A stretch of DNA of 19,039 nt from Candidatus Borrarchaeum weybense (lineage in GTDB: Archaea > Asgardarchaeota > Sifarchaeia > Borrarchaeales > Borrarchaeaceae), in the NCBI GenBank assembly GCA_019057385.1, contig JAHQJS010000004.1:662508-681546 (forward strand). The letters run 5' to 3'. The notes below the pieces were generated by a model. The model saw nothing but the letters and a program-made list of their open reading frames with translations, made no database searches and had not been told where the DNA came from. Both the position numbers and the translations under genes were made by a program. The first letter of the stretch is position 1; the number at the start of each line of letters is the position of its first letter. Below, in pieces: positions 3,128 to 11,891 of the stretch.

Positions 3128-4033
3128 ATGTCTAAAAGAAAGGTTCATCGAGTTTCCATAAATGATGTAGTATTTGCTACGGATAAAAATAATCCACCTG
3201 TGCTACATATTTCATCGGGAGACACAGTCATCTTTGAGTGCAAGGACGCATTTAATCAAGGAATACAAAGTTCCACCGATTTACCGACAGATTTGGACTT
3301 CGAAAGGGTAAATCCTGCAACGGGTCCCGTTTATATTGAAGGAGCAGAACCTGGTGACACGTTAGAGGTGCATATAGAGAAAATCGAGATGGCGGCTCAA
3401 GGAGCCTGTTGCATAGTTCCTGGCTTTGGTTTTCTTGCTCCAGAATTTCCTGATGCATGGACAAAGATAATTCCTATTAAAAACGGTTATGCTGAGTTTG
3501 GCAAAGGAATACGAATCCCGATTGATCCCTTTCCAGGAACCTTAGTAGTAGCCCCTCCTGGTGAAGGCGAAGGTACGTTGGTTCCTAAAGATCATGGAGG
3601 AAACATGGATACGAAAGCGATTAAAGAAGGAACTGTGCTTTACTTACCTGTTTTCGTTCCTGGGGCGCTATTCGGAGTTGGGGATGTACATGCCGTACAA
3701 GGAGACGGTGAGATATGTGGTACTGCAGTGGAGGTCGATGCCGAAGTCACGATTAGACTTCTAGTGAACAAACAAAAGAAGATCACACGACCACAAATTG
3801 AGACACCTGACTTCTTTATGACTACTGCTTATGCTGAAACGACAGATGAAGCAGTGAAGATAGCTCTGCGTGATATGATAGACTGGCTTGAAGCAGAAAA
3901 AGGACTTACACGGCAGGAGGCTTATGCACTCTGTAGCTGTGCCGTTGATATGCGGATATCGCAATTGGTAGATATAACCCCTGGAGTTCGTGTAGTTCTT
4001 CCAAAAGTCATATTCATCGAATCAGAATCTTAG
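3128..4033 (+). CDS. acetamidase/formamidase family protein
   Basis: 301-aa ORF with SSGDTVIFECKDAFNQGIQ, NPATGPVYIEGAEPGDTLEVHIEKIE, GDVHAVQGDGEICGTAVEVDAEVTIRL. RBS-like GGAGG about 8 nt upstream of the ATG. Confidence 0.92.
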   Translation: MSKRKVHRVSINDVVFATDKNNPPVLHISSGDTVIFECKDAFNQGIQSSTDLPTDLDFERVNPATGPVYIEGAEPGDTLEVHIEKIEMAAQGACCIVPGFGFLAPEFPDAWTKIIPIKNGYAEFGKGIRIPIDPFPGTLVVAPPGEGEGTLVPKDHGGNMDTKAIKEGTVLYLPVFVPGALFGVGDVHAVQGDGEICGTAVEVDAEVTIRLLVNKQKKITRPQIETPDFFMTTAYAETTDEAVKIALRDMIDWLEAEKGLTRQEAYALCSCAVDMRISQLVDITPGVRVVLPKVIFIESES

Positions 4034-8744: not shown

Positions 8745-8979
8745 AAGATCACTTTACGTTATTGACTAGTATGAGAATTCTTAATAGTATGGTTTTCTTT
8801 ACATTAATTAACATTGTCCATTCTCCGTTGGTTTTGAAGAAAACAATTCCTTATTCACTTTTATGGCAAAGTTGGATGGATATTTTTAAACTGAAGGTGA
8901 GAATAAGCTAAGATGCAATCAATTAACCAATTGATACTCACTGCTAAAACCACGACATAACACATTTTTGGTGAACTTA

Positions 8980-9849
8980 ATGATTATGGTATTGAAGGGG
9001 CACACTGAGACTGTTTACGACATTGCTATCAAAAATGATGGTCTTATTGCATCAGCGTCTGGTGACAAGACGGTTAGACTCTGGGATTTAAAATCAGGTA
9101 AACAATTAAAGGTACTTAAAGGCGCACATTCAAAACCAGTGTATGGAGTGGCGTTTCACCCCTTTGATGATAATCTACTTGCAACGTGTTCGATGGATAA
9201 CGAGATCGCATTATGGGATATAGCTACAGAAACAAAATTAAAAACATTGAAGGGGCATACGAAATCGATTCGATCGATTAGTTTTTCTCTTGATGGAAAT
9301 GTATTGATATCAGGATCAAATGATAAAACTATAGGATTATGGGATATATATTCTGGCAATCTTCTAAGAACACTAAAAGGGCATCTCGATCAAGTGTGGA
9401 GTGTTGCGATTGGCTATGATATTACCCTTGCCTCCGCTTCTAAAGATAAAACAGCACGTTTGTGGAATCTAGAAACAGGAGAACTTCTGCAGGTTTTTTC
9501 ACATGCCAATTACGTTTCAGATGTAGCGTTCTCGCCACAAATTGACCTTTTAGCATCCGCATGTTTCGATAATAACATCTATTTCTGGCAAAGTGGCTCA
9601 AAATCTCCTGTCAGGCTTATAAAAGCCCATGAACAACCTGTGTTAGGCATAGCTTTTAGCCATAATGGTAAATTTGTTGCATCGAGTTCTGCAGATAATT
9701 CCATAGGTCTATGGGATGTTCGTACTGGTGAATCTATTTTACGATTAACTGGGCATTCCGAGCCAGTTAGAAAGATTTTATTCAATTTAGATGATTCATT
9801 TTTGATTTCTTGTTCAGAAGACAAAACAATTGGTATCTTTGAAATTTAG
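8980..9849 (+). CDS. WD40 repeat protein, seven-bladed propeller
   Basis: Seven GH/AH...WD-type repeats (VRLWD, IALWD, IGLWD, ARLWN, IYFWQ, IGLWD, IGIFE). The track begins at TTG 8968; ATG 8980 or 8986 is more likely. Confidence 0.93.
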   Translation: MIMVLKGHTETVYDIAIKNDGLIASASGDKTVRLWDLKSGKQLKVLKGAHSKPVYGVAFHPFDDNLLATCSMDNEIALWDIATETKLKTLKGHTKSIRSISFSLDGNVLISGSNDKTIGLWDIYSGNLLRTLKGHLDQVWSVAIGYDITLASASKDKTARLWNLETGELLQVFSHANYVSDVAFSPQIDLLASACFDNNIYFWQSGSKSPVRLIKAHEQPVLGIAFSHNGKFVASSSADNSIGLWDVRTGESILRLTGHSEPVRKILFNLDDSFLISCSEDKTIGIFEI

Positions 9850-10334: not shown

Positions 10335-10667
10335 CCGTCTGGAGGAAAATTCGCCTCTTGACGAAAACCCCTTCTAATTCCAACATTCAATTTTTTGACA
10401 TTTCTTGTTTACTACTTTCATTTATCACCTCTTTATTGAATGTTCAATATTTTTCACAAATATTGTTCATTTGTCTTATTAATTACCTCTAGATCGTTCA
10501 TTTAATAGATCAAATTGAATACCAACATTAAATCGTTCATTTATAAATCTTTCGCTATAGAAGATGATCGAATTATATCAAAAAAGATATTTTTTTACAT
10601 TTCTATTTCAAAAAGAGTTGTATATTTCACTTACGTGTTACAAATAGGCTAAAAAGTTCTAGTAGGC

Positions 10668-10741
10668 GATTTGGTGAACTTTGGCTAAGTTATCAAGAAC
10701 AAGAAATCATCTTTTTTTTCTTTCTTATTCCCTACCAAATC
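10668..10741 (-). promoter_or_regulatory. candidate SECIS element of selenoprotein gene A (3'-UTR, overlapping the terminal TGA)
   Basis: Minus strand: GATTTGGTAGGGAATAAGAAAGAAAAAAAAGATGATTTCTTGTTCTTGATAACTTAGCCAAAGTTCACCAAATC. Closed by perfect 8-bp GATTTGGT/ACCAAATC; 69/74 positions identical to the element after gene B. Confidence 0.75.
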
Positions 10742-11216
10742 ACTTATTTAACTTTTCAAGCACTTCGAATAATGCTTTATTCTTCGGAATGTCGCTCATA
10801 GAATCACTGTAATAAGCATATTGAATGATTCCCTCTTTGTCGACTATAAGTAGCGCCGGCATGCGTCCTAATTTTCGAATTTTGAATTCCTGATGCAGTT
10901 TTTTGGCAACTTCCTTATTGTTATCGTAATATATCGGAAATTTTTCTTTCGCGTACTTTTGTTCCATCTTAATAGCATTTTCAAGCGTGTCTACCAAAAT
11001 TGGATAAATAATCGTGTCTAATTGCTCAAATTGCTCTTTATCTTTAGCAAAACTGCGAACTTGTGCTCTGCAATATGGTCAGTTGATGCTTCTAAGTAAA
11101 GCAACGATAACATTATTCTTTTCGATGAAGTCTTTGATGTTTACGTTTTCTTCCCTTGAATTAGGCAGAGAAAATTCTTCAATTTCCTTCCCTACCATTT
11201 CAAATTTATCCTTCAT
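10740..11216 (-). CDS. selenocysteine-containing peroxiredoxin-like / AhpC-TSA thioredoxin-fold protein A (UxxC)
   Basis: Reading TGA at 11079-11081 as Sec gives 158 aa: MKDKFEMVGKEIEEFSLPNSREENVNIKDFIEKNNVIVALLRSINUPYCRAQVRSFAKDKEQFEQLDTIIYPILVDTLENAIKMEQKYAKEKFPIYYDNNKEVAKKLHQEFKIRKLGRMPALLIVDKEGIIQYAYYSDSMSDIPKNKALFEVLEKLNK*. No other in-frame stop and no frameshift. The TGA falls at the expected N-terminal redox position of a CxxC-type peroxiredoxin-like motif. Confidence 0.88.
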
Positions 11217-11333
11217 TCGTCTCTCTCTCAAGTTCTCCGTCCTTTGAATTTACTTTGATTCTGTCATTACAGTGTTTTTAATCTTTATTGATGCGGTATA
11301 CGGCCCTTTTGACTTAAAAATAAGAATTCTGGC

Positions 11334-11406
11334 GATTTGGTCAACTTTGGCTAAGTTACGAGAACAAGAAATCATCCTTCTTTTCTTTCTTATTCCCTAC
11401 CAAATC
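11334..11406 (-). promoter_or_regulatory. candidate SECIS element of selenoprotein gene B (3'-UTR)
   Basis: Minus strand: GATTTGGTAGGGAATAAGAAAGAAAAGAAGGATGATTTCTTGTTCTCGTAACTTAGCCAAAGTTGACCAAATC. It starts 5 nt after the TAG stop of gene B and is nearly identical to the element after gene A. Confidence 0.75.
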
Positions 11407-11411
11407 AGTTA

Positions 11412-11891
11412 CTACTGTAGATTTCTAATTGCTTCTAACAATTCCTCAATTTTAGGATTGTCCTTTCCAGAATCACCATAGTAAGCATATTGTATGATTC
11501 CTTCTTTATCTACTATGAGGACGGCTGGCATTCGTCTATATTTGTCATCTACTAATTTAACTTCCTGGCCGAGTATTGTTAGTACTTCTTTCGATTCATC
11601 ATAGTACACAGGAAACTTACCTTTTGCATATTTTTGCTCCATTTCAATGGCATTTTTGAGTACATCCTCCGTAATTGCAATGATGATGGTATTTGACTGA
11701 TCAATCTCATCAAAATGATTAGCTAAGCTCTGGATGTGCTTTCTTCAATGTCCTCAGGCCAGTCCTTTTTTCAATGATATGACTATGTTTTTTCGTCCAA
11801 GAACTTCTTTAATATTTACCGTTTCGCCTCTCGAATTAGGCAGGGAAAACTCCTTGATGTGTTTTCCTATCATATTAAATTTATCTTTCAT
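11412..11891 (-). CDS. double-selenocysteine peroxiredoxin-like / AhpC-TSA thioredoxin-fold protein B (UxxU)
   Basis: Reading TGA at 11754-11756 and 11745-11747 as Sec gives 159 aa: MKDKFNMIGKHIKEFSLPNSRGETVNIKEVLGRKNIVISLKKGLAUGHURKHIQSLANHFDEIDQSNTIIIAITEDVLKNAIEMEQKYAKGKFPVYYDESKEVLTILGQEVKLVDDKYRRMPAVLIVDKEGIIQYAYYGDSGKDNPKIEELLEAIRNLQ*. Codon 46 aligns with Sec-46 of A and codon 49 with Cys-49 of A. Confidence 0.85.

Follow-up and report, generated by a model that had tools for sequence, protein, structure and literature searches.

Candidate three-way-junction SECIS elements behind the tandem Prx-like selenoprotein genes of an Asgard archaeon

The question

A stretch of 19,039 nucleotides from Candidatus Borrarchaeum weybense (contig JAHQJS010000004.1, positions 662,508 to 681,546; the window in what follows) carries on its minus strand two neighbouring genes, A and B, for Prx-like (PrxL) selenoproteins. 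A short non-coding segment lies behind each of them, and the question raised by the locus is whether these segments, elements A and B, are selenocysteine insertion sequences (SECIS), the signals for reading in-frame UGA as selenocysteine (Sec). In our opinion it is very probable that the two segments are SECIS elements in the 3' untranslated regions (UTRs) of the tandem genes, and that they belong to a PrxL-specific RNA family with the shape of a three-way junction. Association with Sec genes and conservation are observed, covariation backs the fold, and the canonical layout is absent. The genes themselves are known; the new part is the three-armed RNA shape, which differs from the published Asgard hairpin.

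The matter is of more than local importance, since the 3'-UTR SECIS elements of Asgard archaea are used as a bridge between the systems of archaea and eukaryotes. PrxL selenoproteins that contain a single Sec or two were first reported from Lokiarchaeota by Mariotti et al. 2016 (PMC4989117), and a Prx selenoprotein in Sifarchaeia was previously listed by Sun et al. 2021. The genes and elements of the window are as follows.

11216..10740, minus: gene A, PrxL selenoprotein of 158 aa, from translation, AhpC-TSA/Redoxin fold
11081-11079, minus: UGA, Sec codon 46 of gene A, in a UxxC redox box (SIN-U-PYC)
10742-10740, minus: UGA stop of gene A, sharing the first two bases of element A
10741..10668, minus: element A, 74 nt, SECIS candidate of gene A
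10648..10667, minus: tail after element A, short and non-conserved, with a U5 tract
11891..11412, minus: gene B, Prx-like selenoprotein of 159 aa, from translation
11756-11754 and 11747-11745, minus: UGA, Sec codons 46 and 49 of gene B, in a UxxU redox box (GLA-U-GH-U)
3' end of gene B, minus: stop UAG, then UAA-CU before element B
11406..11334, minus: element B, 73 nt, SECIS candidate of gene B
11315-11333, minus: tail of element B, with a U5 tract at the equivalent position

Two nearly identical segments

An alignment of elements A and B gives identity at 69 of 74 positions. The sequence-only reading of this DNA had reported the same figure and had noticed that the non-coding part is better conserved than the coding part, which is indeed the case: the two coding sequences agree in 322 of 493 aligned columns (65%) and the proteins in 55%. 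In the 60 nt past each element the identity between the two copies is about 50%, which is background. Element A is moreover identical to its counterpart in Candidatus Borrarchaeum yapensis (locus L001), where the protein of the gene A orthologue is 96% identical. The distance from Sec codon to element is 340 nt for gene A, and 350 and 341 nt for the two Sec codons of gene B.

Could such identity be a mere by-product of a recent tandem duplication or of gene conversion in the spacer, with no selection behind it? Element B of the window is 93% identical to element A and 89-90% identical to its own orthologues in L001 and L010; since it is closer to A than to its orthologues, some local gene conversion is likely. 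As the sole cause, however, recent conversion is contradicted by conservation across lineages. More than 30 distinct versions of the element, with compensatory changes among them, occur across Borrarchaeales and Lokiarchaeia-type metagenome-assembled genomes (MAGs), the similarity ends sharply at the element borders, and within L001 and L010 copies A and B still share 85-86% of their positions against 65% for coding DNA. We therefore give this explanation, which the sequence-only reading had itself raised, practically no chance.

A fold with three arms

Folded in the mRNA sense, both copies take the same Y shape, at -22.2 and -22.9 kcal/mol (z = -3.7), and none of 200 shuffles folded as stably; the opposite strand gives a weaker fold (z about -1.8 to -2.0). 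A closing helix (P1) holds together a long hairpin (P2, with loop L2) and a second, short one (P3), with the joining segments J12, J23 and J31 between them.

10741-10734, minus: element A, P1 5' strand GAUUUGGU; J12 is the A at 10733
10732-10721 and 10706-10695, minus: element A, P2 5' strand GGGAAUAAGAAA and P2 3' strand UUUCUUGUUCUU
10720-10707, minus: element A, loop L2 GAAAAAAAAGAUGA, in which a 5' GA and a 3' (A)UGA flank an A-rich run on top of P2
10694-10692 and 10691-10677, minus: element A, J23 GAU and P3 AACU-UAGCCAA-AGUU
10676 and 10675-10668, minus: element A, J31 C and P1 3' strand ACCAAAUC
11406-11399, 11398 and 11397-11386, minus: element B, P1 5' strand, J12 (A) and P2 5' strand
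11385-11372 and 11371-11360, minus: element B, loop L2 GAAAAGAAGGAUGA and P2 3' strand
11359-11358 and 11357-11343, minus: element B, J23 and P3 hairpin (loop AGCCA)
11342 and 11341-11334, minus: element B, J31 and P1 3' strand

The complementarities named in the sequence-only reading are all there, namely GAUUUGGU/ACCAAAUC, AAGAAA/UUUCUU (as part of a 12-bp helix) and AACUU-AGCCA-AAGUU, together with the AUGA string. That reading had also considered alternative UUUGG/CCAAA and UAAG/CUUA pairings around a GAA, as in a euryarchaeal internal loop. The pairings do exist in the window, but they are lost in relatives, where the CCAAA of the P3 loop reads CCACA or CCAUA, and we have rejected the GAA-type fold as not conserved.

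Relatives of the element were collected in two ways. Seven Asgard loci came from protein-based retrieval out of species-representative genomes, and every one of them having a 3' flank carries a homologous element; a gene-blind DNA pattern scan of metagenomes from JGI supplied 28 further loci. The family pattern itself matches the window twice, against 0.00 matches expected from 200 shuffles. From the pattern-scan loci we built a covariance model (CM), R1, which makes 41 strong matches of 60-89 bits in the window and L001-L035, among them tandem second copies overlooked by the exact pattern. Elements A and B score 78.0 bits (E 1.5e-14) and 77.5 bits (E 1.9e-14). Three more strong copies stand in L038, L039 and L047, loci fetched for other reasons, and bring the total to 44.

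The relatives confirm the fold. From 30 distinct sequences aligned with MAFFT, RNAalifold predicts both P2 and P3, and 7 of the 14 pairs show compensatory changes. In a CM-based alignment of 34 copies, 96.3% of the cells are standard pairs, as compared with 33-56% once the 3' partners are slid along, and eight pairs (42 cells) have changed on both sides, a result attained by none of 500 shuffles. Stem-preserving substitutions, whose absence the sequence-only reading would have counted against the element, are thus plentiful; six of the ten P2 pairs show such double changes, and at the third P3 pair 19 sequences have G-C where 14 have C-G. G.U pairs, which are frequent, make sense on the mRNA strand alone.

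The arms differ in what they conserve. P1, with the consensus GAUUUGG(U)...(A)CCAAAUC, is an essentially invariant closing helix. J12 contains an invariant A, and the four bases ahead of P2 are GG(U/A)A in all members. P2 has 9-12 bp, of which the basal half (GAAUAA/UUAUUC) is conserved while the apical half covaries, and its L2 loop is an A-rich run of 10-19 nt starting with (N)GAAAA or AAAAA. J23 is 2-4 nt long and variable (UAA, UUA, GAU, GU, AA and others). P3 consists of 4 bp and a 7-nt loop U(A/C)GCCAN, whose GCCA never varies. The features universal to the family are therefore P1, the A-rich loop and the GCCA loop, and an invariant P1 sequence combined with an invariant GCCA loop suggests a specific binding partner. 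GCCA is complementary to the UGGU of P1, and so it could compete with the 3' strand of P1.

As side observations, the P3 loop (window 10681-10687 and 11348-11354, minus) reads UUAGCCA, and UUCGCCA in three copies; its GCCA coincides with what a tRNA reads at its 3' end when the discriminator base is G.

Association with selenoprotein genes

Wherever the redox motif of the upstream gene is on the contig, that gene is a UGA-containing PrxL gene (37 of 37). A non-selenoprotein gene ahead of the element, which in the opinion of the sequence-only reading would speak against a SECIS, did not appear among these informative copies. The redox boxes are UxxC, UxxU or UxxA/S/T, with UGA always at the first redox position. 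Measured to the UUUGG core of P1, the gap from the stop codon is 0-31 nt; measured to the start of the P1 helix, it is 0-29 nt. In genes with a UGA stop, P1 begins with the GA of that codon.

The non-Sec homologues P0017 (CxxC), P0038 (DxxC), P0067 (CxxC) and P0040 (DxxC) offer a comparison, and none of the four has the element behind it, the best score being about 9 bits. In two of the four a convergent gene abuts the stop. The tandem array of L038 serves as a natural experiment: a Sec paralogue (137-609) is followed at once by its element (610-681, 80 bits), and the Cys (CPVC) paralogue at 775-1272, only 94 nt beyond that element, has none. R1 was also run on seven hdrA-frhD loci without a match. 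An element that stands behind the Sec paralogue but not behind the Cys paralogue, and that is not matched by R1 in hdrA-frhD loci, follows the pattern of a SECIS and argues against a general 3'-end element of PrxL genes.

These facts also bear on the idea that the element is a PrxL 3'-UTR structure with some other role, such as 3'-end formation, mRNA stability or regulation by redox state or selenium, and not a Sec signal. A 3'-end element could well sit where this one does, directly behind the stop codon and, in the window, ahead of U tracts, and the U5 tracts may be oligo-U transcription end signals, to judge from their sequence; the invariant P1 and GCCA loop, as said, suggest a specific binding partner. 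On the other hand, the element is found only behind Sec paralogues, while Cys/Asp paralogues have lost it, even where both kinds stand in the same tandem array; no alternative conserved structure that might serve as the SECIS was found from -60 to +150 nt around it; and apart from the element the 3' flanks of genes A and B show no relationship. We consider another role quite improbable.

Some further observations on these loci may be recorded. In L036, L037 and L038 a convergent gene for a DUF362/4Fe-4S ferredoxin abuts or overlaps the stop of the Cys/Asp homologue, an arrangement not seen behind Sec paralogues. Positions 1-16 of L038 are the end of an element that belongs to the preceding gene of the PrxL array. 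Tandem pairs of Sec paralogues, as in the window, also occur in L004, L010, L019 and L032. In L035 a degenerate orphan element (1397-1468, minus; 34 bits, P1 destroyed) lies about 400 nt downstream of an intact copy; tblastn found no PrxL remnant upstream of it, and it is probably the decaying relic of a lost paralogue. For the other PrxL subfamily (GAW-U-HG-U) the sole match was a partial gene at a contig end, and a look-up by accession found no PrxL loci of Lokiarchaeum GC14_75 among the clusters checked.

Absence of the canonical layout

The published Asgard element, lokiSECIS, consists of AUGA, a 9-bp stem, an 11-nt loop that begins with adenines and ends with G, and then GA (Mariotti 2016, PMC4989117). 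Huang et al. 2024 (PMC11227280) extended it to "eSECIS-like" types I and II. It may be asked whether elements A and B are simply hairpins of the type I/lokiSECIS kind already described, with P2 as the upper stem. Type I is the major form for prxL according to Huang 2024 (PMC11227280). P2 and its loop, with an A-rich start and often ending in ...GAG, do recall the published stem and AAAAA...AG loop, and the UGG_CCA lower-stem pairs that the same work gives for frhA (along with a G[U/G]AAA loop for the Borrarchaeales clade) resemble P1. A main stem of about 9 bp (7-15) with an 8-20-nt loop starting with adenines is present in P2, and the location, near the stop in the 3' UTR, is the expected one.

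What is missing is the core. No AUGA or GUGA stands directly 5' of the main stem in the PrxL elements, where J12 reads (U/A)A and there is no NUGA of any kind, and no GA or AA stands directly 3' of the stem to pair with it; J23 is not conserved. In these two respects, both of them defining for the published lokiSECIS/eSECIS-like model, the PrxL element departs from it. We scanned for NUGA, 0-1 nt, a perfect stem of at least 8 bp, an 8-20-nt loop, 0-1 nt and [G/A]A, and found no match from -60 to +150 nt around the element in any of 33 PrxL regions, as against 3 of 3 independent frhD positive controls; an earlier and stricter scan of all loci gave nothing relevant. With the loose eSECIS-like criteria of Huang et al. 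(GA_[G/A]A, up to 2 mismatches) the window yields several matches within P2, and these could be cited in favour of a type I hairpin. All are, however, out of register, they are not the same in element A as in element B, and conservation is lacking; we judge them to be chance. P3 and the invariant P1, finally, lie outside the published model altogether. That the element is an ordinary type I hairpin is in our view unlikely. The description as non-canonical 3'-UTR SECIS candidates, which the sequence-only reading had offered as one possibility, therefore stands up well: the association is with Sec PrxL genes in all informative cases and with none of the non-Sec homologues, the helices show compensatory changes, the canonical layout is absent, and Rfam returns no SECIS.

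The apical loop and the k-loop idea

In both copies of the window L2 has the form GA-(A-rich)-AUGA (10707..10720 and 11372-11385, minus). UGA stands at the 3' end of L2 in 26 of 34 distinct members, and a tandem of [G/A]A...GA is possible in 24 of the 33 distinct members examined. The 5' GA and the 3' GA sit directly on the last pair of P2, so tandem sheared G.A/A.G pairs are possible. The elements of the window may thus form a k-loop, judging by these letters; we regard this as a hypothesis with the balance somewhat against it, and it is clearly not universal in the family. Topologically, such an arrangement would be a circular permutation of the SECIS core.

There is some precedent on the protein side. 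K-loops situated in terminal loops are bound by archaeal L7Ae, one example being in the apical loop of the SECIS of human SelN, and the relevant valine of L7Ae is common to SBP2 (PMC1874613). A k-turn in complex with L7Ae tolerates A at position 2n (PMC3985660). A k-turn or k-junction at the base of P2 was considered as well, and rejected because the G11-C pair is an invariant Watson-Crick pair and J23 lacks a conserved GA.

The boxes in the loop invite one more explanation, namely an independent small RNA gene behind PrxL, for example a C/D-box-like sRNA. GAUGA and GA of L2 do recall C'/D' boxes, and there is a weak, non-significant match to an Rfam C/D snoRNA, which with 22.7 bits and E 6.3 stays far under the gathering score of 51. 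Terminal C and D boxes are absent, as are guide regions; in many members P1 shares bases with the stop codon, and the linkage to Sec genes is strict. An independent sRNA gene can be given hardly any credence.

Points that weigh against a SECIS function

The proposal of a PrxL-specific SECIS has to be held against several points. The insertion of Sec, the binding partner and the k-loop are things that we infer. The canonical SECIS core is absent, which would also agree with another role of the 3'-UTR structure. The non-Sec controls number only four, and in one of these the 3' flank is no longer than 66 nt. In 30 of the 34 aligned sequences P1 and parts of P3 were dictated by the search pattern, and for this reason the invariance of P1 and P3 rests mainly on the 13 pattern-independent copies (two in the window and 11 obtained via proteins), in which it does hold; the copies L032b, L010b, L019b and L038, found by the CM only, agree, but as pattern-selected sequences made up the training set of the CM, they do not count as independent. 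Five members, L002, L005, L009, L011 and L047, all of them behind intact Sec genes, are without the GA...AUGA loop motif, and because of them it cannot be an absolute requirement. Lastly, the element may already be drawn differently in print, given that Mariotti 2016 places AUGA before and GA after a 9-bp stem for PrxL.

A possible mechanism and its meaning

Taking elements A and B as PrxL-specific SECIS elements, we would propose, on the model of other 3'-UTR SECIS elements (PMC4989117, PMC11227280), that the folded RNA recruits the Sec-specific elongation factor (EFSec) with Sec-tRNA(Sec), either directly or through a SECIS-binding protein, and that the UGA codons about 340-350 nt upstream would then be decoded as Sec. 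In gene B a single element would serve both UGAs of the UxxU box, as has been proposed for Loki PrxL.1. A single SECIS serving two UGAs is known for SelL. The UGA of gene A that overlaps P1 presumably acts as a stop, because it is too close for recoding, as has been argued for VhuU (PMC4989117).

A bolder version, which we offer as doubtful though worth stating, is that Asgard archaea would have two SECIS classes in one cell, a canonical one for hdrA-frhD and a Y-shaped one for PrxL with a permuted core (the apical k-loop), a UUUGG/CCAAA helix and a GCCA loop. If that were true, the SECIS-binding factor would be either an L7Ae-type protein that reads both k-junctions and k-loops, or a separate adaptor for PrxL, and we would have a natural set of core-less or core-permuted SECIS elements for tracing the origin of the eukaryote-type SECIS. 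Even in the narrower proposal, an element that retains the overall layout of three helices without the AUGA/GA quartet at the stem base would make the published "eukaryote-like core" non-obligatory in Asgard archaea. For binding and mutagenesis work, concrete nucleotides are indicated by the UUUGG/CCAAA helix, by GCCA in the P3 loop and by the often-present GA...AUGA of the apical loop. There is a practical use as well: the CM picks out PrxL selenoprotein genes which gene callers cut short or in which they render the UGA as Trp.

The genes and their surroundings

Both proteins have the marks of the PrxL family, an AhpC-TSA/Redoxin thioredoxin fold with a U/CxxC/U box (Pfam on the gene B protein: AhpC-TSA 1.4e-16, Redoxin 1.7e-14), and neither has any cysteine outside the redox box. 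Both genes are already catalogued as Asgard selenoproteins (Huang 2024). The protein of gene A matches exactly the entry "Sifarchaeia_GCA_019057385_U_2" of the PrxL supplement of that work, and the N-terminal 48 aa of gene B match exactly "Sifarchaeia_GCA_019057385_U". The latter entry is a 48-aa fragment that ends at the second UGA ("...GLAXGH"), whereas gene B encodes a full-length PrxL protein with two Sec residues (UxxU). The entry for GCA_016840515 in the same supplement is likewise cut at the second UGA. Among the proteins P0001-P0073, most full-length database entries of the PrxL clade read the Sec UGA as Trp (e.g. INWPYC), and some also read through the terminal UGA, with a spurious WFGRE tail that is encoded by the element itself.

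A 293-aa protein with a seven-bladed WD40 beta-propeller (window 8968-9849, plus) adjoins the PrxL pair. The remaining genes of the window are metabolic (dihydroxy-acid dehydratase, a DHDPS-family protein, a cyclase, an F420-dependent NADP oxidoreductase and an amidohydrolase). No genes of the Sec machinery are among the window genes, and a tRNA scan of the window found neither tRNA(Sec) nor any other tRNA.

Comparison with known systems

With eukaryotic SECIS elements (RF00031 and relatives) the PrxL element shares the 3'-UTR site, the distance from the UGA, the AUGA and GA strings and an A-rich loop; it differs in being a three-way junction and in having no core at the base of helix II. An Rfam search returned no SECIS and no other credible family, either at the gathering score or, for the 851-nt region, with E values up to 10. 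We know of no SBP2 homologue in these archaea. Euryarchaeal SECIS elements (Methanococcales/Methanopyrus) have a GAA_A bulge and three G-C pairs. The PrxL element resembles them in its place in an archaeal 3' UTR, yet the family has neither a conserved GAA_A internal loop nor three S-S pairs in a row.

The C'/D' motif of archaeal box C/D sRNAs, a k-loop, has the same succession of helix, GA, loop, (A)UGA and helix. The loop of the PrxL element is longer (10-16 nt) and A-rich, the motif is absent in about one quarter of the members, the context is the 3' UTR of an mRNA and not a guide RNA, and the putative k-loop is here read from sequence.

As for the hdrA-frhD elements, loci of sister Borrarchaeales were retrieved through an FrhD 95% identical to that of the window genome, and the frhD 3' region reads AUGA-C-UCUUGAAAC-GUAAACAUUGUG-GUUUCAAGA-A-GA, a lokiSECIS of the textbook kind whose loop is the G[U/G]AAA one of the clade. 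The hdrA-frhD elements (L040-L046) resemble the PrxL element in having a lower helix that encloses a long 5' hairpin and a short 3' hairpin, and in L040-L044 this lower helix, ACCAAAU/AUUUGGU, is the P1 duplex with its strands swapped. The likeness may be a coincidence or a shared recognition helix. It may be added that the 5' strand of the frhD helix (L040:3306-3314 and 3393-3401, also L041-L044) encodes a conserved GPNP motif. Unlike the PrxL element, frhD has a core of AUGA(N), 9 bp, 12 nt, 9 bp and (N)GA at the junction (k-junction topology), and R1 does not detect it. We also observe that hdrA-frhD elements fold as three-way junctions in three Asgard lineages (L040:3303-3405; L045:1000-1095; L046:1048-1140), the second hairpin being inserted on the GA (non-bulged) strand, which is the topology of a k-junction (PMC5061560); no mention of this was found in the SECIS literature examined.

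Closest of all in setting is lokiSECIS/type I. Like it, the PrxL element lies within a few nt of the stop codon, has a hairpin of about 9-12 bp with an A-rich, often G-ended loop and an AUGA string, and provides one element for several UGAs, with a UGA stop that may overlap it; one SECIS for a UxxU pair (Loki PrxL.1) and a UGA stop beside a SECIS (VhuU) are both on record (PMC4989117). Unlike lokiSECIS, the PrxL element has its AUGA and GA facing each other inside the apical loop, adds a closing helix of invariant sequence as well as a second hairpin, whose GCCA loop does not vary, and is specific to PrxL genes.

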